From a virus: DNA of 64,000 nt. The stretch is taken from the IMG/VR virus record IMGVR_UViG_3300045988_144993; one strand, given 5' to 3'. The position numbers and the translations under genes are program-made. Below are positions 31,211 through 55,304 of the stretch, in pieces (the stretch's first letter is position 1; each line of letters starts with the position of its first letter). The notes beneath the pieces are model-generated. The model was not told where the DNA came from. It was given only the letters and a program-made list of their open reading frames with translations, and made no database searches.

Positions 31211-32815
31211 ATGACATCATTTCTCATTCCTGTCGGAATTGCAATCGCAGCAATTATTGTAGTTGTCATATTCTGTTGCTTAATTTATAAAGTTGCAGGT
31301 ATTGACAAAGCGCTCATCGTAACAGGTGGCAAAGAACCTAAAATTAAGGTATCTGGTGGTTCTTTTGTAATCCCGATTTTCCGAAAGGCTCAATATTTTG
31401 ACCTTTGTATGTTGACTGTTACAGCAGACAGAGATGAAGTAAAGACCAAAACATCTGTGCCTATTGTAATTGATTGGACTGCACAGATTAGACCTGACAC
31501 CGATAATATGGATAATTTGAAGAAAGCAATTATCTCATTCAAAGAACGAGGTCAAGACGGAATTATAAACGATGTAAAATTGACATTAACAGGTGCGGTT
31601 CGTGATATTGTGGCATCAATGACACCGGAAGAAGTTCTTCGTGACAAAGTTGCTTTTGCCGATAATGTTAAAAAAATTGTTTCTGATGAAATGGTAAATA
31701 TGGGTATGGAACTTGTATCACTCAACATTCAGGACATTACAGACAATAACGGCTACTATGACAATATTGCTGCTCTTGATATGGAAGATAAGCGCCGTGA
31801 AGCAGAGAACAAAAAGGCGGTAGTTGACCAGGCAGTTCGTACACAAAAAGCAGAATCCGAAAAGGTTGCTTCCCAGAATGAACTTGACTCCAAACTTGCT
31901 GTTGCTGCTAAACAAAGAGATAACAACTTGAAGATTGCAGAATTTAAAGCAGAAACAGATAAGGCAGATGCCGATGCCGCAATCGCAGGTGAATTGCAGA
32001 GAACGATTAGGCAGCAGGAAATTGCTCAACAGCAAGGTTGTATCAAGGTTGTTGAGCAAGAACAGGCTAATCTTGCGGCAATGAAAGAAAAAGAAGTAAT
32101 TGCTACAAGAGCCGAGGCTGAAAAGCAAAAGAGACAAATTGAAGCCGAAGCCGATGCAAATGTCCGTAAGGTAAGTGCAGATGCTACCGTTGAGGTTGCA
32201 GAGAAAGAAGCAAGTGCTACCAAGATTACAGCAGAAGCTACCGCAGAGAAAACTCGTAAAGAGGGTACTGCTGTTGCAGATGTTACTAAACAGAAAGGTA
32301 TTGCAGAAGCAGAGGTTATTCGCCAGAGAGGTCTTGCCGAGGCGGAAGTTGAGAAACAGAAGTTAATGGCACAGGCAGAAGGCGAAAGAGCATTAGCAGA
32401 AGCCCGTGCATCCAACGAAAAGGTCAACTTTGAGATTGAGAAGTTGAAGATTGAGAACGAAGCAAAGATTACTATTGCTACAAAGACAGCCGAGATTATG
32501 GCTAACATCGGTCAGAACGCAGAGTTCGTAAATATCGGTGGTGGCAATACTTCCAGCGGAACAGGAAATGTTCTTATCGACACTCTGGCAAGTGTTCCTG
32601 CCCTTATGAAGAAGTTGAATACAGAGAATCAGGCACTCAACGGGCAGTCATTTAATGATGAAATTCGTGGCTTGGTTTCAAGCATTGCCGAACCCGTAAA
32701 GGGTTTACTTGCAACAACTACTAACACAACTGTTAATGGTGTTAAAGATGAAAATGTAAATTCTGACGGCGTAAAGGTTTTACCCGAAACATCTGTTGAA
32801 GCTGGAACAGAGTAA
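31211..32815 (+). CDS. flotillin/SPFH (band 7) family protein
   Basis: N-terminal transmembrane segment, an SPFH domain, and a long Ala/Glu-rich coiled coil with A-E-A-E repeats. Confidence 0.7.
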   Translation: MTSFLIPVGIAIAAIIVVVIFCCLIYKVAGIDKALIVTGGKEPKIKVSGGSFVIPIFRKAQYFDLCMLTVTADRDEVKTKTSVPIVIDWTAQIRPDTDNMDNLKKAIISFKERGQDGIINDVKLTLTGAVRDIVASMTPEEVLRDKVAFADNVKKIVSDEMVNMGMELVSLNIQDITDNNGYYDNIAALDMEDKRREAENKKAVVDQAVRTQKAESEKVASQNELDSKLAVAAKQRDNNLKIAEFKAETDKADADAAIAGELQRTIRQQEIAQQQGCIKVVEQEQANLAAMKEKEVIATRAEAEKQKRQIEAEADANVRKVSADATVEVAEKEASATKITAEATAEKTRKEGTAVADVTKQKGIAEAEVIRQRGLAEAEVEKQKLMAQAEGERALAEARASNEKVNFEIEKLKIENEAKITIATKTAEIMANIGQNAEFVNIGGGNTSSGTGNVLIDTLASVPALMKKLNTENQALNGQSFNDEIRGLVSSIAEPVKGLLATTTNTTVNGVKDENVNSDGVKVLPETSVEAGTE

Positions 32816-32963: not shown

Positions 32964-33038
32964 GCGAATATAGTGTAAAGGTTAGCACGCAAGTTTTCCA
33001 AACTTGAAGTGAGAGTTCAATTCTCTCTATTCGCTCCA
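32964..33038 (+). tRNA. tRNA-Gly(TCC)
   Basis: Acceptor stem GCGAATA/TATTCGC. Anticodon stem CAAGT/ACTTG with loop TTTCCAA. T-arm GAGAG-TTCAATT-CTCTC. CCA is encoded. Confidence 0.75.
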
Positions 33039-33043
33039 TATAT

Positions 33044-33119
33044 TGGGGTGTCGCCAAGCGGTAAGGCACAGGACTTTGACTCCTGCATTTCGTTGGTTCG
33101 AGTCCAACCACCCCAGCCA
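33044..33119 (+). tRNA. tRNA-Gln(TTG)
   Basis: Acceptor stem TGGGGTG/CACCCCA. Anticodon loop CTTTGAC. T-loop GGTTCGAGTCC. CCA is encoded. Confidence 0.75.
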
Positions 33120-33122
33120 TAT

Positions 33123-33213
33123 GGCGAGGTAATCCTAATGGTAAGGAAGCAGTTTGCTAAACTGTTAGTAGCCGGAAAACGGTGTGTGAGTTCGAGTCTC
33201 ACCCTCGCCGCCA
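33123..33213 (+). tRNA. tRNA-Ser(GCT)
   Basis: Acceptor stem GGCGAGG/CCTCGCC. Anticodon loop TTGCTAA. Long variable arm. CCA is encoded. Confidence 0.7.
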
Positions 33214-33327
33214 GTAATCTAATCGCAATTATTAGATACCTAAAATAAAGCGAATAAATAAGGGGTTGAGTGGTACGATACAAACTCTATGCCTTGCAGA
33301 GTTTATACCACAAGCAAGGTAATATAT

Positions 33328-33403
33328 AGGAGGGTAGTTTAATGGAGAACTCCGGTCTCCAAAACCGATGTAGATGAGGGTTCAAATCCTTCCTCTCCTG
33401 CCA
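33328..33403 (+). tRNA. tRNA-Trp(CCA)
   Basis: Acceptor stem AGGAGGG/CTCTCCT with one G-U pair. Anticodon loop CTCCAAA. T-loop GGTTCAAATCC. Confidence 0.6.
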
Positions 33404-33791
33404 GGTAAGTGAGAGATAAATATGCGATTAAAAGGTACAGCCTTTGTATTGGACGAGAAAGGTTTTCTTATTCATAGTTACGAGTCTCAATGCCGAAGTA
33501 CAAGGTGCATATACTCGCAGGTCGAGGGTTGGAGCAACGACTCGAAATAAAGTCTCCAAAATGTTTCCCGATGTTCAGTACACAATCGGCATAGAGGCAA
33601 AGGGTTAAAGGTGTTCGTATAATGACCAGAGATGGAAATTGCCAGAAGTCTGAAAAACCTAATTCTCGTAAGTCTATGAAGAAAGGAATAGCCTTTATTA
33701 GTGGGTGCGATAATGACGATTATCTAAAGGACACTAATTAGCGGTAGAATTTAAGTGTTGCAACACGAAAGACGTAGAGCCGCCAAAACAC

Positions 33792-33866
33792 GCATATGTA
33801 GCCAAATGGTTAAGGCAGCGGACTGCAACTCCGTCATTGCTGGTTCAATTCCAGCCATATGCTCCA
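33792..33866 (+). tRNA. tRNA-Cys(GCA)
   Basis: Acceptor stem GCATATG/CATATGC. Anticodon loop CTGCAAC. T-loop GGTTCAATTCC. Confidence 0.75.
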
Positions 33867-33872
33867 ATATAT

Positions 33873-33948
33873 GTGGTTGTTAGTGTAACGGTAAGCACGG
33901 CAGTTTGTGACACTGCAAGAAAAGGTTCAATTCCTTTACTTCCACCCA
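33873..33948 (+). tRNA. tRNA-His(GTG) with encoded G-1 and C73
   Basis: Anticodon stem GCAGT/ACTGC with loop TTGTGAC. T-arm AAAGG-TTCAATT-CCTTT. The acceptor stem (TGGTTGT/ACTTCCA) has two adjacent U-U mismatches at pairs 4:69 and 5:68. Confidence 0.6.
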
Positions 33949-33956
33949 ATATATAT

Positions 33957-34032
33957 GTGCCAGTAGCTCAATCGGTAGAGCAATCGACTTTTAATCGGTA
34001 GGTCGGAGGTTCGATTCCTCTCTGGCACACCA
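33957..34032 (+). tRNA. tRNA-Lys(TTT)
   Basis: Acceptor stem GTGCCAG/CTGGCAC. Anticodon loop CTTTTAA. T-loop GGTTCGATTCC. Confidence 0.75.
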
Positions 34033-34034
34033 TT

Positions 34035-34169
34035 GATGGCTGAAAATACTCATCCTTCTAAATCTTTTGCCTGTTAAGCAAGAGGTTGTCGGTTCGAGTC
34101 CGGCACTACCCCGTGGGTAGTTAGCTCAATCGGATAGAGCGCTTACAAGAATAGAGTATAAAATTTCCA
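34035..34169 (+). repeat. repeat unit U0 (long class) carrying a permuted tRNA-Asn-like domain
   Basis: Conserved blocks GATGGCTG and TCATCCTTCTA (34050-34060), and AAATTTCCA (34161-34169). Confidence 0.6.
34066..34146 (+). ncRNA. circularly permuted tRNA-like domain (Asn-GTT-like)
   Basis: Gene order: anticodon stem-loop TTTGC-CTGTTAA-GCAAG, then variable region, then T-arm GTCGG-TTCGAGT-CCGGC, then acceptor 3' strand ACTACCC plus C, then GT, then acceptor 5' strand GGGTAGT, then D-arm GCTC..GAGC, then anticodon-stem 5' strand. The two acceptor strands are perfectly complementary. Confidence 0.5.
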
Positions 34170-34275
34170 TCAAATTTCCCTTAACGGCTATATTGAAACT
34201 TCCTTCTATTAAAGAAATTGGGTTCTAAATAGTTTCAATGATTACCGACAAATTAAAACAAAGGAGATTATTACA

Positions 34276-36540
34276 ATGAAGAATTTCAAATTAACAGAAC
34301 TTGATAAGATTTTGTTACGCCGTAAGCATTCAGTGATGTTTGAACCTGCTAATATGACTTATGAGCAGAGCAAGACAGAAAAAGCACTCGTTGTTTCCGG
34401 CTTGAAAAATGTTCAGGCTCTTGGATTTACATTTTCAAAGGAACTTATTGAAAAAGCATTTCATTTTACAAGAGATGAGTTTACTGCTTTCTATGGTTTT
34501 CTTATTCCTGCACTTAAAGAACTTGTTGGTGCGGATGTTACATATAATCCAATGTACCCGAACTTTCCACAGCAGGTTGCAGAAGCAAGTGACATTGAGT
34601 TATTCATCAATGCAATCGTTCATTACTGGTCATTTGGCACATTGATTCCCGAATACGAAAAAAATGAGCGTTTACCGCTTATTGATGACAATAAAATGGC
34701 TGTTTTATCAGTAGGAAGTCACGATGATTTGATGACTATTTTCACAAATCTTGTTGAGAGCAAGACATCAATCTCGGAGCAGGACAAAGAGGACATTGAA
34801 ACTATCATTCTTGCTTGTCCTGATTATACTACATATCTTCCTGATACAATCCCTCTTAAAGAGAATGTTGCGTTCGTTGGAAAACTCATTATTGAAAAAG
34901 CACCAATCAAAAGCGCCGATTCAATAGGCAAATACTTCAAGACCGCAACGGATGTTTTACGACTTGTAACAGCACTTTCCGATGGCGACATTAGCCTTGC
35001 TTCAAAAACCAAGTACAGAAATCTTCGTAGGGTTGAACGCCGTATGATTATGGACTTGCTTACTGGTTGTGGTAACATAACAGAGGATTTATTCCGTTAT
35101 CAGTATGAATGGATTAGAGTTGCAGAAATTCTTCATCCGTTTGAATATAAAAAAGCAAAGTATAGCAATGTCAACGCTGCATTCAATACTTTAAGAAACG
35201 AGAAAAAACCTCTTATGTTTGCAGGAAAGGTTCAGGCAGCAATTACCGCAAAAGATATGCGTGAAGCTGCCACCTTGTTAAAAGCAAGACCCGGAGAGTT
35301 CGCAAGGCAACTTGACAAACTGATTCGTGATGCAGATAATCCGAATTATATTGTCAACTGTTTTAAGGAAGTTGCAACAGAAATCTCAACTCCTGTACTC
35401 CTTCAGGTAAGACAGCATTTCATAGGAAGAATGGAGAATGATAATCAGCCTGTAAGAGTATTCTTTCCTAAAGGAAACCTTGCAAAAGCTATGGTTATCA
35501 GAAATGAACTTCCTAAAATCAATAGTAATGTATGTAAAAATGTTGCAAGGATTTGCCGTGAGGCTTTAATTGAACAGTACAAGGAAAAAGATTTTCTCGG
35601 AAAGGTTTATATTGATGAGGATTTCAAAAACTACCTTGTTCCGTTTAGTCAGAGAAGTGCAAGTAAGGCTGTTAAGACCATTGTTCGTGGTAGCAAATTG
35701 CCCATTAAGGAAGATGCTGCGGCTGTTCGTGGTTTTATCTGGTGGACTAATACCGATAAGACGAGAAATAGTTGGGATGCCGGCAATTATTGCAAAGGCA
35801 GGGTTGATATTGACCTTTCTGCAACCATCTATGATGAAAATTGGCAGTATGTTGACCGTGTATCATACACACAACTTCGCTCTGCAAAGTACAGAGCATA
35901 TCATTCGGGTGATATTACCAATGGCGGAAATGTTAATGGCGATGGTGTAGCAGAGTTCATTGATGTAGAGATTGATGCGGTGGCTAAAAATGCCGGTAGA
36001 TACATTGCATTTCAGGTTTATAGTTTTACACGACAGCATTTTTCTACGCTTCCTAATTGCCGTTTCGGATGGATGGAAAGAGAAGATGTAAATAGCGGTG
36101 AGATATTCGAGCCGCAAACAGTTGAAATGAAGATTGACTTAACTGCTGACAGCACTGTTGCTATACCCGTTATATTCGATTGCGTTGAGCGTAAATTCAT
36201 TTGGTGTGATATGAACCTTCAAAATGCAAGTTCGAGGTTTTATGGAAATAATCTTGAAAGTAATTTACACGGTGTAACCGCAACTTGCTATGGCTTAACA
36301 CATCTTAATAAGGCAAATATTTATGACCTCATAATGATGAATGCTATTGCAAGAGGTAGTATTGTCACAGATAGAAATGAAGCAGACATCATTTTCAGCA
36401 ATGATACAACAGTACCTTATGAAATTGTAAATGAGCTTGACGAGGTTACGGGTACTACAAAACCTGTTGTAAAGGAAAAGCCGGAAGTTCCGATTATCAC
36501 GGCTTTCGATACTGATTACTTTATGGGTCAGTTATTATAA
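34276..36540 (+). CDS. large protein with a C-terminal TerD-like domain
   Basis: From about residue 470 the pattern DIDLSATIYDENWQ...YHSGDITNGG..GDGVAEFIDVEID...IAFQVYSF matches the TerD/TerZ fold. The N-terminal ~460 aa are unassigned. Confidence 0.55.
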   Translation: MKNFKLTELDKILLRRKHSVMFEPANMTYEQSKTEKALVVSGLKNVQALGFTFSKELIEKAFHFTRDEFTAFYGFLIPALKELVGADVTYNPMYPNFPQQVAEASDIELFINAIVHYWSFGTLIPEYEKNERLPLIDDNKMAVLSVGSHDDLMTIFTNLVESKTSISEQDKEDIETIILACPDYTTYLPDTIPLKENVAFVGKLIIEKAPIKSADSIGKYFKTATDVLRLVTALSDGDISLASKTKYRNLRRVERRMIMDLLTGCGNITEDLFRYQYEWIRVAEILHPFEYKKAKYSNVNAAFNTLRNEKKPLMFAGKVQAAITAKDMREAATLLKARPGEFARQLDKLIRDADNPNYIVNCFKEVATEISTPVLLQVRQHFIGRMENDNQPVRVFFPKGNLAKAMVIRNELPKINSNVCKNVARICREALIEQYKEKDFLGKVYIDEDFKNYLVPFSQRSASKAVKTIVRGSKLPIKEDAAAVRGFIWWTNTDKTRNSWDAGNYCKGRVDIDLSATIYDENWQYVDRVSYTQLRSAKYRAYHSGDITNGGNVNGDGVAEFIDVEIDAVAKNAGRYIAFQVYSFTRQHFSTLPNCRFGWMEREDVNSGEIFEPQTVEMKIDLTADSTVAIPVIFDCVERKFIWCDMNLQNASSRFYGNNLESNLHGVTATCYGLTHLNKANIYDLIMMNAIARGSIVTDRNEADIIFSNDTTVPYEIVNELDEVTGTTKPVVKEKPEVPIITAFDTDYFMGQLL

Positions 36541-36548
36541 AAGTATTT

Positions 36549-36650
36549 TGTGGCTATGGGCTTTCTTCCTTCTACAAGAAAATAATTTCGGTGGTTAAGC
36601 CACCTACATAATGATGATAAGATAGAAAGTTCGATTTCCACTATTCATAA
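36549..36650 (+). repeat. repeat unit U1 (degenerate)
   Basis: TGTGGCT, then TCTTCCTTCTA, then ATTTCCA. Internal hairpin GGTGG-TTAAG-CCACC. Confidence 0.45.
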
Positions 36651-36652
36651 TT

Positions 36653-36726
36653 TGTGGCTGTAATGCTCATCCTTCTACATAATATCAAGAACTGCAAATT
36701 CTTCTAAAAAGAGCATTAAATTTCCA
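36653..36726 (+). repeat. repeat unit U2 (short class, 74 nt)
   Basis: TGTGGCTG at 36653, TCATCCTTCTA at 36667, AAATTTCCA at 36718. Anticodon-arm-like hairpin AAGAA-CTGCAAA-TTCTT at 36687-36703. Confidence 0.55.
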
Positions 36727-36745
36727 CACCTCTTTCTAAATATTA

Positions 36746-36822
36746 TGTGGCTATTGTTTTTCATCCTTCTACGCCAATAGGCACTTGATTTGGGATTAAG
36801 ATTTCAGAGAAACAAATTTCCA
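36746..36822 (+). repeat. repeat unit U3 (short class, 77 nt)
   Basis: TGTGGCT at 36746, TCATCCTTCTA at 36761, AAATTTCCA at 36814. Hairpin CTTGA-TTTGGGA-TTAAG at 36784-36800. Confidence 0.55.
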
Positions 36823-36834
36823 TAATACAAAATA

Positions 36835-36983
36835 TGTGGCTGACCAACATCATCCTTCTATATATCAGGGAACTATATGTCGTGGGTTCGATTCCCACCA
36901 TTCCATCGAAGATGGAATGTAGCACAGTTGGTAGTGCAATAGTATTATTAGATGTTAAAATTACCGCATCGAATAAATTTCAA
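36835..36983 (+). repeat. repeat unit U4 (long class) carrying a permuted tRNA-like domain
   Basis: TGTGGCTG at 36835, TCATCCTTCTA at 36850, AAATTTCAA at 36975. Confidence 0.6.
36872..36943 (+). ncRNA. circularly permuted tRNA-like domain
   Basis: ACTAT, variable region, T-arm GTGGG-TTCGATT-CCCAC, acceptor 3' strand CATTCCA, loop TCGAAGA, acceptor 5' strand TGGAATG, D-arm TA-GCAC-AGTTGGTA-GTGC, then ATAGT. Both the acceptor stem (7 bp) and the anticodon stem (5 bp) pair perfectly. The would-be anticodon loop is not canonical. Confidence 0.5.
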
Positions 36984-37012
36984 ATAATTAGAAATAATAT
37001 TGAGAAAAACAC

Positions 37013-37041
37013 TTGACAAATAGTAAAATGTGTGCTATAAT
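37013..37041 (+). promoter_or_regulatory. sigma-A-type promoter with upstream element, inside the repeat region
   Basis: Upstream element TTAGAAATAATATTGAGAAA at 36988. TTGACA at 37013 and extended -10 TATAAT at 37036. Confidence 0.55.
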
Positions 37042-37064
37042 ATCTAATGTAAGTTAAATAAATA

Positions 37065-37142
37065 TTCGGCTGTTGAGGTTCATCCTTCTACCTATTAGGA
37101 ATAGACTTTTAATCTATATATTATAAGAGCCTCAAATTTCTG
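37065..37142 (+). repeat. repeat unit U5 (short class)
   Basis: TTCGGCTG, TCATCCTTCTA at 37080, AAATTTCTG at 37134. Hairpin ATAGA-CTTTTAA-TCTAT at 37101-37117. Confidence 0.5.
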
Positions 37143-37151
37143 AATATAAGC

Positions 37152-37289
37152 TGGCTGAAAGGTTTCATCCTTCTTCAAATACATAATATCAAGCTGCTAA
37201 TCGTGGGTTCGATTCCCACCTATCTACATTGTTGGTAGTCGCCAAGAGGTAAGGCAGCAGCCCTAAAATCAAAGAGACCGAAATTTCCA
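37152..37289 (+). repeat. repeat unit U6 (long class) carrying a permuted tRNA-like domain
   Basis: TGGCTG at 37152, TCATCCTTCTT at 37165, AAATTTCCA at 37281. Confidence 0.55.
37193..37261 (+). ncRNA. circularly permuted tRNA-like domain (Gln/Glu-type D-arm)
   Basis: GCTGC, variable region, T-arm GTGGG-TTCGATT-CCCAC, CTATCTA, then TTGGTAG, D-arm TCGCCAAGAGGTAAGGCA, then GCAGC. The anticodon stem pairs perfectly. The acceptor stem pairs only 5 of 7, with one wobble. Confidence 0.4.
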
Positions 37290-37481
37290 GCATTAAGAAA
37301 CATTATTGAGCAAAACAAAATACGATAACTACAAAACCTAATCAGAATTTTTCACCTCTTTCTTTCCTTTCTATGTTTTTGTGTATTTCATAAGATAAAT
37401 TAAGAGTATTTTTTTGTCTGATTAAAACCTGTTTAACAGGGGGCAAAGTTAGATAGATAAAGGTCTTTGCCATATACATAT

Positions 37482-37559
37482 GCGCCGATAGTTCAGTTGG
37501 AACAGAATGCTTGACTACGAATCAAGAGGTCGCAGGTTCGAGTCCTGCTCGGCGTGCCA
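37482..37559 (+). tRNA. tRNA-Arg(ACG)
   Basis: Acceptor stem GCGCCGA/TCGGCGT. Anticodon stem CTTGA/TCAAG with loop CTACGAA. T-arm GCAGG-TTCGAGT-CCTGC. CCA is encoded. Confidence 0.7.
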
Positions 37560-37577
37560 AGAGTGAAAATTTAATAT

Positions 37578-37663
37578 GCTGGTATGATGGAATTGGCAGA
37601 CATAGCGGACTTAAAATCCGTTGGCTGCAAGCCGTGTCGGTTCGAGTCCGACTACCAGTACCA
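37578..37663 (+). tRNA. tRNA-Leu(TAA)
   Basis: Acceptor stem GCTGGTA/TACCAGT. Anticodon loop CTTAAAA. Long variable arm. T-arm GTCGG-TTCGAGT-CCGAC. Confidence 0.7.
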
Positions 37664-37713
37664 CTTTTCATTAAGTTTCACCTCTATTGACAGCCGGGAA
37701 AGACCGGCAATAT

Positions 37714-37803
37714 GGCGAGTTGGCAGAGTCCGGCTTATTGCACCTGTCTCGAAAACAGGCGGCGGTGATGAGCCGCCCGTGGGTTCAAATCCTACACTCG
37801 CCG
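37714..37803 (+). tRNA. tRNA-Ser(CGA)
   Basis: Acceptor stem GGCGAGT/ACTCGCC. Anticodon stem CCTGT/ACAGG with loop CTCGAAA. Long variable arm. T-arm GTGGG-TTCAAAT-CCTAC. CCA is not encoded. Confidence 0.65.
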
Positions 37804-38422
37804 TCAACATCCTGTTAGCGCAACAGGTTGGTTGAGAACCGACTCTCACGACCAATACCAAAAGCATAAAAGCCTCTTAACAATGCTCACTATTATGAAA
37901 AAGTTGGTTATTAAAATATTGCTGTCGCCGCGAATATAGGTGGGGTAAACATACTTTCATATGCAAATCGCAAAATCCTCATTAGCGAACTCCGTGGAAG
38001 CTGCTCCTATGGCTGATGGCTTCTGACAGCAACTATATAAATGAGAAGAAAGAAACTCTCTGTTTAGGGTGAAATGATATATCTCTAATCGGTGCTGACA
38101 CCTATCAGACATTTATATGGCGTTACACCCTCTACCGATACGATAAATCGGGGTAACACAATGGTGAGGGAATTATAAATACGAGAGTGCAGGAATAATG
38201 AGTAGTCATTCAAAGGAATTACAGTAAATGATTGTGCATTTATAACGAACTGCAAGAGTGAATGTATGAACAATGAATGACGGTGACTAAATATCAGTTA
38301 GCAATGGCAATATGAGGCGAGGATGTGGTGTGGCTATGCAAACCAACTCACAGTGTTTCGGCATAGAGTAGTTAAACTGTTGCTAACTGGTATTGAAATC
38401 ACTTTAGAAAGGAGAGAACAAA

Positions 38423-38692
38423 ATGTTTCATAATGTAATAATCGGAAGTCCGATTGTAGAACCTAAAACATTGATTGCTCTTGATGATGTAGATTGGGAA
38501 ACCAATGAAAAAGAAAAGACATTATTTACCGATACAAGATTTCTTCCGGCAATTATGAAAGAAGCCGGAATAGTGAAATCAATCGGAGAAGTTAGAAAGA
38601 ATAAGCCCGAACTTGTTTTTACTCTTAATGAACTTGATTGTTTATGGATTAAATGGGGCAAGAAGTTTCTTTATATTGTAGTCGGTAATTGA
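38423..38692 (+). CDS. hypothetical protein
   Basis: ORF with ribosome-binding site AAAGGAGAG. Confidence 0.55.
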   Translation: MFHNVIIGSPIVEPKTLIALDDVDWETNEKEKTLFTDTRFLPAIMKEAGIVKSIGEVRKNKPELVFTLNELDCLWIKWGKKFLYIVVGN

Positions 38693-38920
38693 TTGGAAAT
38701 TTATTATGAATAAAGATAAATTTGCGGAATTGATAAATGAAATATTTATAAGCGGCGTTGCTTATGGTATGGCTTATCAAACAAAAAGTGATGCAGAGAA
38801 ATATCATATTATTGATGAAAAAACAGATAAAATTTTATTTAGTGATTTTTAGTTAATGATTTGGCTATTTCTTTTTATCCAAGTGTGATTATTCCATCTG
38901 CTTTGAAAAATAAATGAATT

Positions 38921-39003
38921 GCTGGTGTGGTGGAATGGCAGACACGGCAGACTCAAAATCTGTTGCTATAAGCGTGCGAGTTCAAATCTCGCCACCAGCA
39001 CCA
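38921..39003 (+). tRNA. tRNA-Leu(CAA)
   Basis: Acceptor stem GCTGGTG/CACCAGC. Anticodon stem GCAGA/TCTGT with loop CTCAAAA. Long variable arm. T-arm GCGAG-TTCAAAT-CTCGC. CCA is encoded. Confidence 0.65.
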
Positions 39004-39005
39004 AA

Positions 39006-39099
39006 GGTTCATTGGTCAAGTGGTTAAGACACTGGCGGAGGTATGTAGTGTAAATCAGGCACACTGCCGGAGACATAGGTTCAAATCCTATATGAGCCA
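39006..39099 (+). ncRNA. tRNA-like element (94 nt) with a 29-nt anticodon-loop region
   Basis: Acceptor stem GGTTCAT/ATGAGCC. D-arm GTC..GAC. T-arm ATAGG-TTCAAAT-CCTAT. The only consistent anticodon stem is CTGGC/GCCGG, which encloses 29 nt. No anticodon can be assigned and no CCA is present. Confidence 0.35.
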
Positions 39100-39155
39100 T
39101 AGATAATCCTATTTCGTTGTTAAGTGTGGCTGACACTTTCAAAAACAGCCAATAT

Positions 39156-39231
39156 TGCAGGATAGAGAAGTGGTTATCTCGTCAGCCTCATAAGCTGAAA
39201 ATCGTGGGTTCAAATCCCACTCCTGCAACCA
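39156..39231 (+). tRNA. tRNA-Met(CAT), elongator or Ile2-like
   Basis: Acceptor stem TGCAGGA/TCCTGCA. Anticodon stem TCAGC/GCTGA with loop CTCATAA. T-arm GTGGG-TTCAAAT-CCCAC. CCA is encoded. A TGTGGCTG motif lies in the 5' leader at about 39128. Confidence 0.7.
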
Positions 39232-39254
39232 CAAAAAAATAATAATAAGGAGTT

Positions 39255-39641
39255 ATGATTATGGCTAATGTAAAAACTTGTCCTATGTGCGGACAGAGAA
39301 TTGCTACATACAAACACAAACTAAATAAGGTTCTTATTTCTGCTTTGTTCAAATTAAGAGACCACGGCGGAAAAGGTAAGATTGATAATCTTGGTCTTAC
39401 TCATAGTGAATTTGCAAATATGCAGAAACTTCGCTATTTTGGCTTGGTTGATAAAGAGGGTTGTGTTTATATCCTTAACGAACTTGGTAGAAAGTTTCTT
39501 GAAAATAAGGCAAAAGTTCCTGCCGAGGTTTATACAAAGCACGGGCAGCTAATAGGAACTTCCAATATGGTTTATGCAAATCAAGTAGATGCTTATGTTC
39601 AAGTAAAAGAAGAATGGAAAGAGCAATCAGCTATGGCATAA
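39255..39641 (+). CDS. hypothetical protein with an N-terminal zinc ribbon
   Basis: CPMCGQ motif. Ribosome-binding site AAGGAG. Confidence 0.55.
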   Translation: MIMANVKTCPMCGQRIATYKHKLNKVLISALFKLRDHGGKGKIDNLGLTHSEFANMQKLRYFGLVDKEGCVYILNELGRKFLENKAKVPAEVYTKHGQLIGTSNMVYANQVDAYVQVKEEWKEQSAMA

Positions 39642-39667
39642 TATAATTCAAAAAAGAGGATGAGAGT

Positions 39668-40519
39668 ATGAAATACAGTGCATTTGATAAAAGAATGAAA
39701 AAGTATGAATTTGTGTCGAGACACTATTTGACAACTCGAACCCCAGTTATTATACGAATTGACGGTAAAGCATTTCATACATTCACAAGAGGTTTTCAAA
39801 AACCTTTTGATGATGTGCTTTCTAAAACTATGCAGGAGACAATGAAGTATCTTTGTGAGAATATTCAGGGTTGCGTTCTTGGATATACACAATCCGATGA
39901 GATTACTCTTGTTCTTGTTGATTACAGAAATATAGATACTTCTGCTTGGTTTGATTATAATATCCAAAAATGTGCGAGCGTTGCAGCCAGTATGGCAACA
40001 ATGGCTTTTAATAAATTTTTCAATAAAAGAGCCAATGATTATATAAATTCGGTTTTAGAACTTCAAGATATAGATATTCCACCTGAATCAGAATATATTG
40101 AGGTACTTAATAGAGCAATAGATAAAGGGGCAATGTTTGATGCCCGTGTATTTAATATTCCAAAAGATGAGGTTTGCAATAATTTGCTTTGGAGACAGAA
40201 TGATGCAACCAGAAATTCTATTCAGATGGTTGGTAGAACATATTTTTCTCATAAGCAGTTAGATAAAAAATCTATAAGCGATATTCAGGATATGCTTATG
40301 CTCGAAAAAGGCGTCAACTGGAATAATTGTCCTACGAAATACAAGAGAGGTAGTTGTTGTATTCGTAAGATTGATGAAACAACAGCGAGAAGTAAATGGA
40401 TTATTGATAATGAAATTCCTATTTTTAAGGAAGATGGTCGAAAGTATGTCAATGATTTAATATACTTGGGAGGGCAATATGAGTTATCGCAGAAGTCAGG
40501 AAAGAAATCACAGACTTAA
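39668..40519 (+). CDS. Thg1-like protein (tRNA-His guanylyltransferase / 3'-5' nucleotidyltransferase family)
   Basis: KKYEFV...VIIRIDGKAFHTFT..QKPFDD...GYTQSDEITLVL...LLWRQNDATRN. Confidence 0.75.
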   Translation: MKYSAFDKRMKKYEFVSRHYLTTRTPVIIRIDGKAFHTFTRGFQKPFDDVLSKTMQETMKYLCENIQGCVLGYTQSDEITLVLVDYRNIDTSAWFDYNIQKCASVAASMATMAFNKFFNKRANDYINSVLELQDIDIPPESEYIEVLNRAIDKGAMFDARVFNIPKDEVCNNLLWRQNDATRNSIQMVGRTYFSHKQLDKKSISDIQDMLMLEKGVNWNNCPTKYKRGSCCIRKIDETTARSKWIIDNEIPIFKEDGRKYVNDLIYLGGQYELSQKSGKKSQT

Positions 40520-40727
40520 AAAACTTTATAATGAAACCAAGAATTCATATGGTGCTGGTGCTTGGTATGACGAGAAAAAAAGAAGATATATAAAATATTC
40601 TTGTGGTGGCAGGAAATATAAAAAGTATCTTAAAAAAATATCAAGCAAGAAAGCACGCAAATATAAAGGCGATATGAGACATTGTGATTATAAGAGAATT
40701 TTTGATTATTGGTGGGAGCTATTTTAA
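40479..40727 (+). CDS. small, highly basic protein
   Basis: ORF overlapping the 3' end of the Thg1-like gene. It may not be expressed. Confidence 0.3.
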   Translation: MSYRRSQERNHRLKKLYNETKNSYGAGAWYDEKKRRYIKYSCGGRKYKKYLKKISSKKARKYKGDMRHCDYKRIFDYWWELF

Positions 40728-41155
40728 TGAGAAGATTATTCATAATGCGAAAAGATTTGAATATGTCTCCCGGCAAACTTGCAGCCCAAGTATCTCATTG
40801 TGCCGAAGCATATTGGACTCGTGGATTAAGGAATTATGCAAAACCTTTGGATGATTATGCCGGATATGAAATTAAAGGAATAATTGATAAAGAAATATTT
40901 GAACAATATCTAAATGGTTCATTTACAAAAACCATTTGTGAAGCAAGGAATAAAAATCATTTACTTAAAGCGGTCAAGATTGCACAAGAACTTGGGTTGA
41001 TAGAGAATGTTCATTATGGTTTAATTTATGATGCTTGTTTTACCGAGCTTACACCAGAAGAAGAAAACGGAACAACACTAACTGGAATTTGGTTTTGTCC
41101 TCTTAAAGATGATATGGCTCATTACATAAGTAAAAAATATCAATTATATCATTGA
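40727..41155 (+). CDS. PTH2-family peptidyl-tRNA hydrolase
   Basis: MRKDLNMSPGKLAAQVSH and DAC.TEL...GTTLTGIWFCP motifs. Confidence 0.75.
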   Translation: MRRLFIMRKDLNMSPGKLAAQVSHCAEAYWTRGLRNYAKPLDDYAGYEIKGIIDKEIFEQYLNGSFTKTICEARNKNHLLKAVKIAQELGLIENVHYGLIYDACFTELTPEEENGTTLTGIWFCPLKDDMAHYISKKYQLYH

Positions 41156-41189
41156 CAATATATTGTAAATGATAATTGGAGATTTATCA

Positions 41190-42029
41190 ATGAATATTTA
41201 TACTACATATTTTGCAAATATTCGCCATTTGCCAGAAAGTATTATACCAGTTTCAATAGCTGGAAAACCGCCCGAAAAATGGGATGAAATTGAGTATAAG
41301 AAATTAGCACCTAAATGGAGTTTCTTTTCCGAGTGGAAAAAAACTAAAAATAACGATTATTATATTGAACATTTTTATGATGAAGTATTAAGTAGTCTTA
41401 CTCCACAAAATGTAATTGATGAACTAAATAAAATTAGTTCTAATAATGATAACAAAGATATTGCCCTTGTGTGTTACGAAATTCCAAGAGATTTTTGCCA
41501 CAGACATATTGTTTCCGGTTGGTTAAATCGTAATGGATATTGTGTAAAAGAATATATTGATATGAATTCTATAAAAGATACAGATGACGGAATTACACAT
41601 ATCAATATTTATAGTAAAGGCAAAACTGATTTAGGAAAAATGCTAAGTAACTTTTATAAGTTTCCTATACATACAGATGACGGTGATTTTCTATCAGTTG
41701 AGGGATATTGGTATTGGTTATCTATTGATGATTCGGTGAGAGAAAGAGAAGAATTACGTTATTTATATGGATTTAATGCTAAAAGCAGAGGTAAAGAAAT
41801 CTTAAAAGAAACAAATGATGGTAAAAGTAGTAGATTTGAGCCTGACTTTGAAAATAAGATTCTAAAAGCTATTTGGTATAAATTAAGAAGAAATGCAAAT
41901 CTATTAACACCTGAATATCGGAGATTACCAATAGTTCATTATTATTGTTATGGTGGAAAGGTTGTTGATGTTACAAGTAAATATCAATGGTTAATAGACG
42001 GAATTACTAAAATGAGAGATTACTTATAA
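41190..42029 (+). CDS. DUF488-like domain protein with a C-terminal extension
   Basis: NIYTTYFAN...LVCYE..RDFCHRHIV. Confidence 0.45.
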   Translation: MNIYTTYFANIRHLPESIIPVSIAGKPPEKWDEIEYKKLAPKWSFFSEWKKTKNNDYYIEHFYDEVLSSLTPQNVIDELNKISSNNDNKDIALVCYEIPRDFCHRHIVSGWLNRNGYCVKEYIDMNSIKDTDDGITHINIYSKGKTDLGKMLSNFYKFPIHTDDGDFLSVEGYWYWLSIDDSVREREELRYLYGFNAKSRGKEILKETNDGKSSRFEPDFENKILKAIWYKLRRNANLLTPEYRRLPIVHYYCYGGKVVDVTSKYQWLIDGITKMRDYL

Positions 42030-42783: not shown

Positions 42784-43554
42784 ATGATTTATATAACAGG
42801 CGATACTCACGCAAATTTCAATAGATTTTCTACAAAGAATTTTCCTGAACAAAAGGAAATGACTAAAGATGATTCTGTGATAATTTGTGGTGATTTTGGT
42901 GGAATTTGGAATTATCTTTATTCCGACAAAACAGAAACATATTGGTTAAAATGGCTTGAAGATAAACCATTTACGATATTATTTGTTGATGGAAACCACG
43001 AAAATTTTGATAGATTGAGTAAAGAATTTAAGGTTGTTAATTATCACGGCGGTAAAGCTCATAGAATACGCAGCAATATCTATCATCTTATGAGAGGTTA
43101 TGTATTTGAATTTGAAGGAAAGAAGTTCTTTACTTTTGGCGGAGCAAGTAGTCACGATATTCAAGACGGTATATTACAAATTGAAGATTATTCAACATTG
43201 AGTGATTTGGTTAAGGATTATAATAAAAGAACCAGAGCAGGGCAAATGTTGAGAATTGACCACATATCTTGGTGGAAAAAGGAACTTCCATCGTACTATG
43301 AAATGCAGAGAGGCAGACGGGAATTAGAAAAGGTAAATTATGAAGTCGATTATGTAATTACTCATTGTGCGCCTCAAGATATTGTTTCATATATTTCTCA
43401 CGGATATTACAAACCTGATATTTTAACAATGTATCTTGGTGAAATAGCTCGTGAACTTAAATTTACAAAGTGGTATTTTGGTCATTATCATAATGAACAA
43501 GCTATTATGGATAAATTTATTCTTCACTATGATAAGATTGAGAGGATTATTTAA
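42784..43554 (+). CDS. calcineurin-like metallophosphoesterase
   Basis: GDTHAN, GDFGG, GNHEN and GHYH motifs. Confidence 0.65.
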   Translation: MIYITGDTHANFNRFSTKNFPEQKEMTKDDSVIICGDFGGIWNYLYSDKTETYWLKWLEDKPFTILFVDGNHENFDRLSKEFKVVNYHGGKAHRIRSNIYHLMRGYVFEFEGKKFFTFGGASSHDIQDGILQIEDYSTLSDLVKDYNKRTRAGQMLRIDHISWWKKELPSYYEMQRGRRELEKVNYEVDYVITHCAPQDIVSYISHGYYKPDILTMYLGEIARELKFTKWYFGHYHNEQAIMDKFILHYDKIERII

Positions 43555-44465: not shown

Positions 44466-45347
44466 ATGAAAGTATTTTATCATTCAGACAATGATGGTAA
44501 ATGTGCTGGTTATTGGGTAAAAACCTTAAATAAATTAACTGACAACTTTACCGATGAATATATCAAAATAAATTATGGGATAGAATTCCCATTTGACTCT
44601 ATTGGAAAGAATGAAATTGTATATATTGTAGATTATTCTATTTCTCCGGAAGAAATGGATAAGTTACTTGAAATTACGAGTAATGTCATTTGGATTGACC
44701 ATCATAAATCAGCAATTGAAAAATATAAGAATTATGATAAAGAAGTTAAAGGGTTAAGGTATGACGGTATTGCTGGTTGTATGCTTACTTATTGTTATCT
44801 TTCATTTCTTACTGATGAAACTAAAGAATTTACACCTGAAATGGTTGTGTCAGCTCCGATGTTTACAAAGTTAATTGCGGATTATGATGTTTGGACTTTT
44901 GAGTTTGGAGATAAGACAAGAAGATTTCAAAAAGGCTTTGAATTATATCCACACGAACCAGAGGATAAAATCTGGGATAATTTATGGAGCAATATATTCT
45001 GTGAATCAGATGAAATGAATCGGATTATAGAAGCAGGGAAGATAATTATTGAATATAGAAAATGTATGATGGCAGAGTATTGTGAAAATAAGGGATTTGA
45101 AGCAATTCTTGAAGATTACAAATGTTTTGCTATCAATATGGCTATGGTTAGCAGTGATGATTTTGTCATTGATAATATAAACGATTATGATATTCTAATT
45201 GGATTCTCATATGATGGAGATAATTGGAATTATTCATTGCGTTCCACAAAGGTTGACTGTGCAGTGCTTGCTATGAAATATGGTGGTGGCGGTCATAAGG
45301 GTGCAGCAGGATTTAGTAGCCCTGACTTTGTGTTAAGAAAATTGTAA
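44466..45347 (+). CDS. DHH/DHHA1 phosphoesterase (NrnA-like nanoRNase/pAp phosphatase)
   Basis: HSDNDG, IDHH and C-terminal GGGHKGAAGF motifs. Confidence 0.6.
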   Translation: MKVFYHSDNDGKCAGYWVKTLNKLTDNFTDEYIKINYGIEFPFDSIGKNEIVYIVDYSISPEEMDKLLEITSNVIWIDHHKSAIEKYKNYDKEVKGLRYDGIAGCMLTYCYLSFLTDETKEFTPEMVVSAPMFTKLIADYDVWTFEFGDKTRRFQKGFELYPHEPEDKIWDNLWSNIFCESDEMNRIIEAGKIIIEYRKCMMAEYCENKGFEAILEDYKCFAINMAMVSSDDFVIDNINDYDILIGFSYDGDNWNYSLRSTKVDCAVLAMKYGGGGHKGAAGFSSPDFVLRKL

Positions 45348-46753: not shown

Positions 46754-47797
46754 ATGTTAAAAATGACACAAGAAGAAACACAAAAAGTTCTTGATGAGAG
46801 AAATGGAAATTTTCAAATCATTTCTTATAATGGAATGAGAAATAACAGTGAGGTTATATGTTTACATTGTGGTTCACAATTTAGCACTTCCATAGATAGT
46901 TTATTGAGAAAAACAGGAACTTCGTTTGGATGTAGTTATTGCAATTTTCAAAGAATAAAAGATAAGTTGCAAAACAATTCACTTGAATTTATTTCAAGGA
47001 ATAAAGATAAAATAAATGTTAAATGTAAAAACTGTAATCATATTATAGCAAATAGAACTTCTATTCTTACAAATCCTAAATACTTATGCAAATATTGTTC
47101 ATCGGATGCAAGATTAAGTAAAATAATTAACAATCCAAAACTTTATTCTATTTCAACTATAAACCACGCAATTATTGACTGGAATATCCGATGTTTGATT
47201 GAAACTCATTCTTTAGAATGGTATTACATACTTGGGCTTCTTATATCTGATGGGTCTTTTGATAACATAAATAATAGAATTGTGTTAGCATTAAAAAAGT
47301 CAGACAAAGATTGTATAAATAAAATTGCTAATATTATTGGTTGTAAAGTAACTGAAACCAGTAAAACTATTGGAATTGATTTTTGTTGTGGCACTATCAA
47401 ATCTATAATTAAAAAATATTCAATATCCAATGCTAAAACTTATAATCCTTGTGATATTTCATCCTTAAATGATAAAGAGTTAATTGCTTTTATTATTGGT
47501 TTTATTGATGGAGATGGTAATATTGGTTATCGAAGTGATACAAAATCTCCAAGAATTACAATAAAGCTACATAATAGTTGGTGTCGTAATCTTAAATATA
47601 TTTCTGATGGTTTATATAAATATTTCGGTATTATTAAATCTCCTAATCCGGTTTTAGTTAAGCAAGATAATAAAATATATGCTACTATAACTTTTGGAAA
47701 TAAAACTGTTTTAAGAGGTTTATATGATTTTATTAAAATAAATTCTATTCCTGCAATGAAAAGAAAATGGAATAGGTTGGAGGTGTTGAATATATGA
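46754..47797 (+). CDS. LAGLIDADG homing endonuclease with N-terminal zinc fingers
   Basis: Two LAGLIDADG motifs (LGLLISDGSF and IIGFIDGDGNI). CxxC pairs at the N-terminus. Confidence 0.7.
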   Translation: MLKMTQEETQKVLDERNGNFQIISYNGMRNNSEVICLHCGSQFSTSIDSLLRKTGTSFGCSYCNFQRIKDKLQNNSLEFISRNKDKINVKCKNCNHIIANRTSILTNPKYLCKYCSSDARLSKIINNPKLYSISTINHAIIDWNIRCLIETHSLEWYYILGLLISDGSFDNINNRIVLALKKSDKDCINKIANIIGCKVTETSKTIGIDFCCGTIKSIIKKYSISNAKTYNPCDISSLNDKELIAFIIGFIDGDGNIGYRSDTKSPRITIKLHNSWCRNLKYISDGLYKYFGIIKSPNPVLVKQDNKIYATITFGNKTVLRGLYDFIKINSIPAMKRKWNRLEVLNI

Positions 47798-48642: not shown

Positions 48643-49230
48643 ATGAGCAAACCATATGATGTAGGTGCTATTTGTGGCAGATTTCAAACTTTTCATATCG
48701 GTCACGAATCACTTGTTGATACAGCGTTAAAACTGTGTGATAGGGTGTTAATTTTGGTCGGTTCTTCGCAGGAATGTGGAACAGAAAGAAATCCACTAAA
48801 CATTGACACAAGAATAAGAATGTTGAGAGCTATTTACGGTGATGATGACTCAATTATTATTAAGGGTATTTCTGATTTAACAGATGAAAATGATATTAGA
48901 CCTGAATGGGGTCGATACTTACTTGATAATATTGACCGTTATATTTATAAGACACCTGAACTTATGATATACGGTAATGATGAAAGCCGGTCTCGATGGT
49001 TTGACCCAGATGATATTAAGGATGTTACAGAAATTATTGTAAGCCGTGGAAAAATACCTATTTCGGCTACACAAGTAAGAGCCTTAATGGTTGCCGATAA
49101 TCGCAGAGAATGGCAAAAATGGGTTAATCCAAAATTACACAAGATGTATGACGAAATTCGGAGAGAGTTAATGAGTGTTCCATTTTATGCTTCGGAAGAA
49201 TACATTGAGTCTATAAAAGAGGTGATATAA
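48643..49230 (+). CDS. nicotinamide-mononucleotide adenylyltransferase-like nucleotidyltransferase
   Basis: ICGRFQTFHIGH (the GRFQPFHxGH signature) and ISATQVR motifs. Confidence 0.65.
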   Translation: MSKPYDVGAICGRFQTFHIGHESLVDTALKLCDRVLILVGSSQECGTERNPLNIDTRIRMLRAIYGDDDSIIIKGISDLTDENDIRPEWGRYLLDNIDRYIYKTPELMIYGNDESRSRWFDPDDIKDVTEIIVSRGKIPISATQVRALMVADNRREWQKWVNPKLHKMYDEIRRELMSVPFYASEEYIESIKEVI

Positions 49231-55148: not shown

Positions 55149-55304
55149 ATGAATAATCAACTTATCGAAGAAAATCTGTTAGGTGTTTAACTAATAACAG
55201 GAACAAATTATAAACGAATAAGCGATGTTTGTAATAATAAATATGAGCGTAAAGCGCAGGTGGATATACTTGGCGCTTCGTTGAAAATGAAAGGAGTTGA
55301 TTAT

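Follow-up and report, generated by a model that had tools for sequence, protein, structure and literature searches.

A family of scaffold RNAs, some with tRNA-like cargo, associated with an alpha-solenoid/TerD protein gene in a phage tRNA island

A 64,000-nt stretch of the IMG/VR virus record IMGVR_UViG_3300045988_144993 (hereafter the window) carries a tRNA island, and in a 3.4-kb gap between tRNA groups of this island we identified an array of eight structured RNA units together with an open reading frame (ORF) for a 754-aa protein. The units, which were absent from an earlier interpretation made from the letters of this DNA alone (the sequence-only reading), are built on one scaffold and flank the protein gene, and comparisons across phage and bacterial genomes identify them as members of a structured RNA family that is tied to one protein family. 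Downstream, the island encodes a Thg1-like protein (TLP) and a PTH2-type peptidyl-tRNA hydrolase, and its tRNA-His carries a tandem mismatch in the acceptor stem.

An RNA array on a common scaffold

The first sign of the array lies directly past tRNA-Lys, where the 3' part of a tRNA is followed by the matching 5' part. Repeat analysis of the gap revealed a recurring TCATCCTTCT motif as well as recurring AAATTTCCA ends, and all eight plus-strand TCCTTCT sites of the window fall inside the eight units (Table 1). Two units precede the 754-aa ORF and six follow it, all of them co-oriented, and unit A2 ends shortly upstream of the ribosome-binding site of the ORF. The unit consensus is 5'-NNNGG / CUR / 9-nt P2a ending in C / WUCCUUCUA - cargo - UA / P2b starting with G / AUUU / CCNNN-3'; i.e., each unit is composed of an outer helix closed by GG/CC (P1), an internal loop (CUR in the 5' strand, AUUU in the 3' strand), an inner helix of nine positions closed by C-G (P2), the single-stranded sequence WUCCUUCUA, and a variable cargo ending in UA. 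The conserved elements of this handle are GGCU, UCCUUCUA, and AUUUCC.

The window and related loci contain 347 leader motifs, from which 298 complete units, 199 of them distinct, were obtained. At a unit score of at least 12, we found 258 units versus 9 when the downstream sequence was shuffled. Pairs that the unit finder had left free are formed in 84–98% of cases versus 41–52% expected, and they include every Watson-Crick type as well as G.U, which indicates an RNA of the plus strand. Unit lengths are bimodal with maxima at ~70–85 nt and ~133–143 nt. No Rfam family matches the scaffold itself at E ≤ 10, the only hits being partial matches of YrlA, tRNA, and tmRNA to the tRNA-like parts, and no known ribozymes, introns, or large RNAs were detected by Rfam at the same threshold. 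The array of eight RNAs on one scaffold flanking the gene for the 754-aa protein is real.

The long units A, E, and G contain a T arm, an acceptor stem closed by a 3–7-nt loop, and a D arm; the cargo of unit A additionally includes a 7-bp hairpin, the loop of which resembles an anticodon loop with GUU, whereas in both E and G the position of the anticodon loop is occupied by the scaffold. RNAalifold analysis of 16 diverged long units recovered P1, P2, the T arm, the closed acceptor, and the D arm, and 23 of the 29 pairs show compensatory changes. Among the short units of the window, three have anticodon-arm-like cargo (C, D, and F). Circularly permuted tRNA genes occur in Cyanidioschyzon merolae and in some archaea; as in such genes, the complementary acceptor strands of A, E, and G are encoded with the 3' part before the 5' part and lie between a leader/trailer pair. 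Unlike in permuted tRNA genes, however, there is no bulge-helix-bulge, the leader and trailer instead forming a 9-bp helix with a 3/4-nt internal loop; inspection showed that E and G lack a canonical 7-nt anticodon loop and so cannot become decoding tRNAs; the same scaffold also bears non-tRNA cargo; and no splicing endonuclease was identified. On the first three of these grounds, we rejected the possibility that A, E, and G are permuted tRNA genes processed at a bulge-helix-bulge. An intron-bearing tRNA was likewise rejected, as the "tRNA-Leu with 243-nt intron" called by ARAGORN in intron mode (-i) is an artefact that joins pieces of the adjacent units E and G.

The 3' tail of Firmicutes 16S rRNA is CCUCCUUUCUA, and WUCCUUCUA (e.g., at 34053) resembles this tail minus one U. 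The ribosome-binding sites of the phage are of the GGAG type, and their pairing with WUCCUUCUA would extend over only ~5 bp; we speculate that mimicry of the anti-Shine-Dalgarno sequence is weak, if it occurs at all.

Pfam identified only a weak TerD domain in the 754-aa protein, and NCBIfam related it (E 1e-120, under the cut-off) to the uncharacterised MXAN_6230/SCO0854 "RING domain-containing" family, for which no paper was found in our literature search. The protein family has 2,797 representatives at 50% identity (E ≤ 0.001). An AlphaFold2 (AF2) model based on a shallow alignment was of low confidence (predicted local distance difference test [pLDDT] score 55.7) and gave meaningless Foldseek matches; therefore, we used a model based on a diverse alignment (pLDDT 89, predicted template modelling score 0.86), in which an alpha-solenoid spans approximately residues 1–440 and is followed by C-terminal beta domains. 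TROVE (PF05731) did not match the window protein, 37 family members, or six N-terminal halves at E ≤ 10, a profile search of the PDB with the 754-aa protein returned TerD only, and the protein shows no signal of the C-terminal vWA/MIDAS domain of Ro60. PADLOC did not assign it to any defence system.

The pairing of RNA and protein gene recurs elsewhere. Of 79 phage loci with homologues that are 36–98% identical, 68 have a leader motif that immediately precedes or follows the ORF in the same orientation, and only two matches were found on the opposite strand. Conversely, scanning IMG/VR with a 15-base leader pattern yielded 41 stretches with a complete unit, 30 of which contain the ORF, and most of the remaining 11 are short fragments of contigs known to encode the protein; a further 72 pattern matches without a unit fit a rough estimate of chance matches to a pattern of 15 bases. 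Homologues, which we sought with a single protein as a query, were found in Ruminococcus sp. YE282, a Clostridia metagenome-assembled genome, Paenibacillus spp., and Priestia, indicating Firmicutes hosts. At the Paenibacillus tyrfis locus, the gene is otherwise stand-alone and its neighbours are not of phage origin. Both P. tyrfis and Ruminococcus sp. YE282 carry the module. In 15 of the 79 phage loci, a TLP gene is found no more than 4 kb from the ORF, and the L061 and L084 lineages have the order TLP-units-ORF-units. Based on these sequence comparisons, the units constitute a family of structured RNAs that is linked to a single protein family; no description of this pairing was found in the literature searched, the coverage of which is incomplete.

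The mismatched tRNA-His and the Thg1-like protein

Acceptor mismatches among the 13 tRNAs called in the window are confined to tRNA-His. Its acceptor stem is UGGUUGU/ACUUCCA, in which pairs 1–3 are Watson-Crick and the mismatches are U4.U69 and U5.U68. The sequence-only reading had reported two adjacent U-U mismatches and an encoded G-1 in this gene, both of which we recovered (the latter as a G at 33873), and had named a comparison with orthologs as a test by which its proposal could fail. For this comparison, we took 65 phage loci with relatives of the TLP, 11 of which have tRNAs nearby. At TLP loci, eight of nine tRNA-His genes have a mismatch at position 4, usually accompanied by one at position 5, versus 8 of 151 other tRNAs, in a sample that is skewed to TLP loci because most loci were gathered through this protein. 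The acceptor UGGUUGU/ACUUCCA recurs in loci L003, L004, and L008, the TLPs of which are 91%, 70%, and 66% identical to that of the window, and in these tRNA-His genes compensatory substitutions have altered the anticodon and T stems while the acceptor has been kept. The more diverged loci L056 and L058 (TLP 53% identical) have the acceptor GUGUYGG/CCUUCAC, again with pyrimidine mismatches at positions 4 and 5, and locus L080, which has a TLP, has the variant GGGUUGU/ACUUCCC with the tandem mismatch kept. Thus, the mismatch is present in orthologous as well as in diverged phages, and the occurrence of a tandem pyrimidine mismatch on three different acceptor sequences argues for selection and against an error. 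In the relative L075, the acceptor is the paired GGGAGGU/ACUUCCC, and no TLP was seen within 4 kb; in Fusobacterium phage Fnu1, a TLP coexists with a tRNA-His that is paired throughout. Judging from these alignments, the tandem mismatch of tRNA-His is real and under selection, though not a general requirement of TLP phages. Rather than damage awaiting editing, it probably represents a determinant in the acceptor helix for recognition or anti-recognition.

Two of the tRNA-His genes from related loci with a TLP have unusual ends. The gene in L007 (11574–11647) has a U before G1 and thus no encoded G-1, U73, and a single U4.U69 mismatch, and the gene in L080 (at 8510) has an encoded G-1 opposite A73 together with the tandem mismatch.

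The sequence-only reading assigned a Thg1-like 3'-5' nucleotidyltransferase to 39668–40519, an assignment that is upheld by significant matches to PF04446 (108.5 bits, cut-off 29.2, E 3e-31) and to phrog_4717 "tRNA-His guanylyltransferase" (E 1e-91); the Thg1C domain is weak (21.8 bits, cut-off 26.3). The nearest solved structure is the TLP of Bacillus thuringiensis (BtTLP; 4kgk, E 5e-63), and matches to eukaryotic Thg1 are far less significant (Candida E 5e-11, human E 2e-8). The stretches "iirIDGkaFH" and "qSDEit" of the window TLP align with the RIDG and SDE stretches of BtTLP, which we take to hold the catalytic carboxylates of Thg1-like proteins. Hence, the alignments place the enzyme with the bacterial-type TLPs, to which it is closer than to eukaryotic Thg1. 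The catalytic domain aligns strongly with that of BtTLP, whereas an insertion of ~33 residues is found in the window TLP; in the phage setting, moreover, the enzyme is accompanied by a mismatched tRNA-His and, in some lineages, by the RNA-protein module. The preferred activity of BtTLP is the templated repair of tRNAs truncated at the 5' end, and the enzyme also places a G-1 across from C73 (PMC3061083).

TLP genes are present in 163 phage records, where they are mostly annotated as tRNA-His guanylyltransferase, and the enzyme is therefore not tied to a mismatched tRNA-His. Mitochondrial tRNA 5' editing is known for acceptor positions 1–3, and in the phage tRNA-His the first three acceptor pairs are intact, the mismatches being at 4:69 and 5:68. 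With the mismatches at these positions, and with a paired tRNA-His in Fnu1 despite its TLP, editing of these mismatches by the TLP is not supported. In the amoebozoan mitochondrial systems (Acanthamoeba and Dictyostelium TLPs; PMC3061083 and PMC5041481), a TLP and acceptor-mismatched tRNA genes likewise occur together; in the phage, by contrast, the mismatches are at positions 4–5, their identity is conserved, and only one tRNA is affected.

Composition of the island and neighbouring genes

ARAGORN and Rfam each called 13 tRNAs, all on the plus strand, comprising 12 canonical tRNAs and one aberrant gene in three groups: 32964–34032 (n = 7), 37482–37805 (n = 3), and 38921–39231 (n = 3). The 12 canonical tRNAs agree with the sequence-only reading, which had arranged them in two clusters and had not counted the thirteenth call. 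Most tRNAs of the window have an encoded CCA followed by an ATAT-type spacer, the exceptions with respect to CCA being tRNA-Ser(CGA) and the aberrant gene. A megablast search of the region against 50,697 phage records returned nothing beyond short tRNA matches.

Table 1. Features of the tRNA island and its surroundings (positions in the window).
Feature	Position	Strand	Remarks
tRNA-Gly(UCC)	32964..33038	+	CCA encoded; ARAGORN; Rfam 70.6 bits
tRNA-Gln(UUG)	33044..33119	+	ARAGORN, Rfam
tRNA-Ser(GCU)	33123..33213	+	ARAGORN, Rfam
tRNA-Trp(CCA)	33328..33403	+	ARAGORN, Rfam
tRNA-Cys(GCA)	33792..33866	+	ARAGORN, Rfam
tRNA-His(GUG)	33873..33948	+	G-1 (33873), C73, and CCA encoded; U4.U69 and U5.U68
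tRNA-Lys(UUU)	33957..34032	+	ARAGORN, Rfam
Scaffold unit A, 141 nt	34033..34173	+	complete permuted tRNA-Asn-like body; YrlA 41.5 bits
Scaffold unit A2, 63 nt	34185..34247	+	small cargo; P2 9/9 paired, P1 3 bp
754-aa protein, N-terminal alpha-solenoid and C-terminal Ca-binding-type TerD domain	34276..36540	+	phage form of MXAN_6230/SCO0854 family
Scaffold unit B, 92 nt	36550..36641	+	hairpin cargo
Scaffold unit C, 76 nt	36653..36728	+	5-bp hairpin, loop CUGCAAA, Cys-anticodon-arm-like
Scaffold unit D, 79 nt	36746..36824	+	hairpin loop UUUGGGA, Pro-anticodon-arm-like
Scaffold unit E, 136 nt	36834..36969	+	permuted tRNA-like body, scaffold in place of anticodon loop; YrlA 38.2 bits
Scaffold unit F, 84 nt	37063..37146	+	hairpin loop CUUUUAA, Lys-anticodon-arm-like
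Scaffold unit G, 142 nt	37150..37291	+	permuted Gln-like tRNA body; repeat D9; YrlA 21.9 bits
tRNA-Arg(ACG)	37482..37559	+	ARAGORN, Rfam
tRNA-Leu(UAA)	37578..37663	+	ARAGORN, Rfam
tRNA-Ser(CGA)	37713..37805	+	ARAGORN, Rfam; no encoded CCA
tRNA-Leu(CAA)	38921..39003	+	ARAGORN, Rfam
Aberrant tRNA-like gene, 94 nt	39006..39099	+	anticodon assignment unreliable; no encoded CCA
tRNA-Met(CAU)	39156..39231	+	ARAGORN, Rfam
Thg1-like protein, bacterial TLP type, predicted 3'-5' nucleotidyltransferase	39668..40519	+	PF04446, phrog_4717, 4kgk
PTH2-type peptidyl-tRNA hydrolase, divergent	40727..41155	+	PF01981 51.2 bits (cut-off 23)
DUF488-N3a protein, uncharacterised C-terminal half	41169..42029	+	Pfam
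Calcineurin-like metallophosphoesterase	42784..43554	+	PF00149; phrog_1649
DHH/DHHA1 phosphoesterase, NrnA/RecJ-like, weak match	44466..45347	+	DHHA1 domain

The aberrant gene was labelled Pro(agg) by ARAGORN, has 29 nt between the strands of the anticodon stem, and matches the Rfam tRNA model with 51.5 bits. Because it was re-called as Thr with a 2-nt intron in the intron mode of ARAGORN, its identity is unreliable, and it may be another tRNA mimic instead of a decoding tRNA. The same sequence is present in L001, and L003 has a version that differs by one base.

Two non-coding stretches of the island also have counterparts in distant phages. The 388-nt gap between tRNA-Trp and tRNA-Cys (33404–33791), which has no Rfam match, contains an 84-nt piece (33523–33606) that it shares, at 84.5% identity, with the distant phage locus L058. 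The stretch from tRNA-Ser(CGA) to a small ORF (37806–38420, core 37905–38185) has 67–79% identity to sequences in the distant loci L004, L071, L072, and L074 and has no Rfam match at E ≤ 10. RNAalifold analysis of six sequences yielded 53 pairs, 25 of which show compensatory changes, and the stretch may represent a second structured RNA, ~270 nt long and so far undescribed. Related TLP phages also carry suppressor-type tRNAs (CUA twice in L056 and L058, UUA in L007, and UCA in L004), which hints at recoding of stop codons in those relatives; the ORFs of the window read through normally under translation table 11.

Downstream of the TLP gene, the PTH2 and the DUF488 protein of the sequence-only reading were both recovered. 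The PTH2 is below the cut-offs of the equivalog models in NCBIfam (46.5 vs. 126) and is therefore a divergent member. Only one of the two metallophosphoesterases claimed in that reading was found, as the other candidate ORFs had no such match even at E ≤ 1, and the DHH/DHHA1 phosphoesterase was supported in part, with DHHA1 above (27.1, cut-off 25.9) and DHH below (24.1, cut-off 28.1) the threshold. The proposal that these genes form a group of co-located enzymes for tRNA end maintenance did not extend to a conserved module: among the 65 TLP loci, PTH2 neighbours the TLP in five, DUF488 in three, a metallophosphoesterase in seven, and DHH in five. Our literature search found no link between DUF488 and tRNA. 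Thg1 and PTH2 in large phages have been discussed previously as factors in RNA repair and ribosome rescue (Iyer et al. 2021; PMC7824862), and a tRNA island with both is an already known kind of phage feature. The RNA-repair sets of jumbo phages listed in that survey comprise Thg1, PTH2, and also ROT/TROVE with a tRNA-like partner; TerD appears there solely within Ter systems, and a term search of the survey found no mention of the RNA scaffold.

Other genes of the window include an SPFH/Band-7 (prohibitin-like) protein directly upstream of the island (31211–32815), homologues of which are present in 6 of the 65 TLP loci; Fnu1 (L066) has a prohibitin-family gene close to its TLP (21389–22198). 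A free-standing LAGLIDADG-type homing endonuclease with zinc-ribbon motifs is encoded downstream of the island (46754–47797). Auxiliary metabolism genes encode an adenylosuccinate-synthetase-like protein (60595–61794), S-adenosylmethionine synthetase (55297–56361), a nicotinamide mononucleotide adenylyltransferase-like protein (48643–49230), and a nicotinamide adenine dinucleotide-dependent DNA ligase (50496–52445). The first of these is possibly of the PurZ type, which would imply DNA containing 2-aminoadenine.

A Y-RNA-like reading, its alternatives, and its implications

With a probability of roughly 0.55, we favour an explanation that joins the tRNA island, the scaffold RNA array with its protein as a Ro60/Y-RNA-like ribonucleoprotein (RNP), and the downstream TLP and PTH2. 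By analogy, the RNA-protein pairing is most likely an RNP of this kind, in which the 754-aa protein would bind the conserved scaffold as its handle, and the tRNA-like cargo would, as in Ro60/YrlA, engage factors that recognise tRNA such as RNase P, modification or repair enzymes, and host tRNA-targeting nucleases. With the 3' strand as a template, the TLP would rebuild the 5' ends of phage tRNAs, above all of tRNA-His, from G-1 or from +1 onward, and it may also act on tRNA-like RNAs opened by RNase P because other lineages have the TLP directly beside the RNA-protein module. The U.U/U.U element of tRNA-His may be read as a determinant or an anti-determinant by a partner such as RNase P, histidyl-tRNA synthetase, the TLP, or a host nuclease.

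The array shares with YrlA/Ro60 (Chen et al. 2014; PMC4201824) a modular RNA with a terminal 5'/3' stem, internal loops, and a tRNA-like domain, and paralogous RNAs that adjoin the same-strand gene of a large alpha-solenoid protein in phages and in RNA-repair neighbourhoods. Unlike in YrlA/Ro60, the handle is composed of GGCUR, WUCCUUCUA, and AUUUCC, the partner is a TerD protein with no TROVE/vWA signal, most units contain small hairpins and not a tRNA-like domain, and arrays reach up to eight units per locus. The YrlA architecture, i.e., a T arm, a closed acceptor-like stem-loop, and a D arm inside a stem of the 5' and 3' ends, is present, in agreement with the Rfam alignments; however, YrlA lies within ~4 kb of a same-strand Ro60/TROVE gene, whereas the co-oriented protein that adjoins the array has no TROVE match. 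A unit in L084 matches YrlA with 37.2 bits, again below the threshold. The array fails three of the four tests of YrlA membership, and its protein fails the TROVE sequence test; therefore, we regard the array as a Y-RNA-like variant and not as a YrlA member. The likeness of the 754-aa protein to Ro60 is weak and at best suggestive.

Several observations weigh against the RNP reading. The YrlA model (RF02553) misses its gathering score of 69 on A, E, and G (Table 1; E 5e-7 for A), and GNCGAAN0-1G, a motif near the 5' end that is the proposed Rsr contact of YrlA (PMC4201824), is absent from the first 40 nt of all 199 distinct units. Only about 25 of 139 short cargos are anticodon-arm-like and 113 are not. 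The module is absent within 10 kb in 57 of the 65 TLP loci, and the TLP is absent within 4 kb in 64 of the 79 module loci. Paenibacillus and Priestia have one or two units upstream of the gene and only in the 5' untranslated region, which also fits a purely cis-regulatory role. Finally, the loci are phylogenetically related, and counts of units and loci overstate their independence.

A cis-acting role, in which the units would be autoregulatory or processing hairpins (of an RNase III-like kind, or leaders bound by protein) that control the 754-aa gene and cut the tRNA/mRNA precursor, and the tRNA-like inserts would be incidental, is unlikely, though it has the arrangement in Paenibacillus and Priestia on its side, as well as the single unit that ends just upstream of the ribosome-binding site in most phage loci. 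RNase III processing sites have two stems, lower and upper, separated by an asymmetric internal loop, and the layout of the units matches this. Such a role sits poorly with units that are also located downstream of the ORF, up to 6–8 per locus, with tRNA-like cargos that are under strong structural selection of their own, and with loop and internal-loop sequences that are kept across proteins only 36–40% identical, suggesting a dedicated binding partner. Sequestration is less probable than a cis-acting role, and quite unlikely on the whole: as decoys or sponges, the units would titrate host anticodon nucleases or tRNA-sensing immunity while the tRNAs, the TLP, and PTH2 replace or repair damaged tRNAs. 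Evasion of tRNA-targeting defence by phage tRNAs has been reported (PMC11555353), and canonical loops of 7 nt that resemble anticodon loops are present in C, D, F, and A (Cys, Pro, Lys UUU, and Asn GUU, respectively), the Lys-UUU-like loop recurring in L005 and L061; the low share of anticodon-arm-like cargos, the 17-nt unstructured cargos of the chromosomal Paenibacillus copies, and the lack of a defence-related match for the 754-aa protein argue against it. That the tRNA fragments are decayed pseudogenes or a repeat resembling miniature inverted-repeat transposable elements, with no function at the RNA level, is disfavoured as highly improbable. Rearranged tRNA genes do build up in phage tRNA islands, and unit G resembles the neighbouring tRNA-Gln (repeat D9), but the helices show covariation, with G.U pairs confined to a single strand, and the copies are all co-oriented and strictly associated with one protein family in phages and bacteria.

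For tRNA-His, the sequence-only reading implied editing or repair by the TLP, such that the first 5–6 nucleotides at the 5' end would be removed and resynthesised in the 3'-5' direction, converting U4U5 to A4A5, as a phage counterpart of the 5' editing of mitochondrial tRNAs. We consider this improbable, if marginally less so than sequestration by decoys. The mismatches lie at positions 4–5, outside the range of 1–3 over which editing is known, and no 5' nuclease partner was identified. Moreover, the full acceptor, including its 5' strand, is invariant across L001–L008 while other stems drift, so that the mismatched helix itself seems to be selected, and Fnu1 combines a TLP with a paired tRNA-His. 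The mismatch is nevertheless conserved, and every mismatched tRNA-His sampled comes from a TLP phage, in a sample biased by collection of most loci via the TLP; the acceptor of L075, for which no TLP was seen within 4 kb, is a "repaired" version with an identical 3' strand. Templated addition is the means by which enzymes of the BtTLP type rebuild acceptor stems, and at the time of that study tRNA genes with 5' mismatches were not known from bacteria or archaea (Rao et al. 2011; PMC3061083).

A more far-reaching version of the Ro60/Y-RNA-like reading is possible but doubtful. The alpha-solenoid/TerD protein and the arrays of RNAs with the GGCUR...WUCCUUCUA...AUUUCC handle would then be a new RNP class that displays swappable permuted tRNA bodies and anticodon arms; in phages, together with a 3'-5' polymerase, it would be a platform of tRNA mimics that serves in repair, or as a decoy, against host immunity directed at tRNAs, and the U.U/U.U tRNA-His would be the first non-organellar tRNA with an acceptor that a Thg1-like enzyme remodels or specifically reads.

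If the favoured explanation is true, it would add a family of structured RNAs, associated with a protein and widespread, that occurs in phages of Firmicutes and in some genomes of Bacillales and has a scaffold that no Rfam 15 family matches. It would also extend the Y-RNA idea of a protein handle combined with a tRNA mimic to an apparently non-homologous protein, suggesting that protein-bound tRNA mimicry has evolved more than once. The mismatched tRNA-His of TLP phages provides a concrete natural candidate substrate for studies of Thg1-like enzymes, and gaps in phage tRNA islands can hold structured RNAs other than tRNAs that are missed by tRNA finders.

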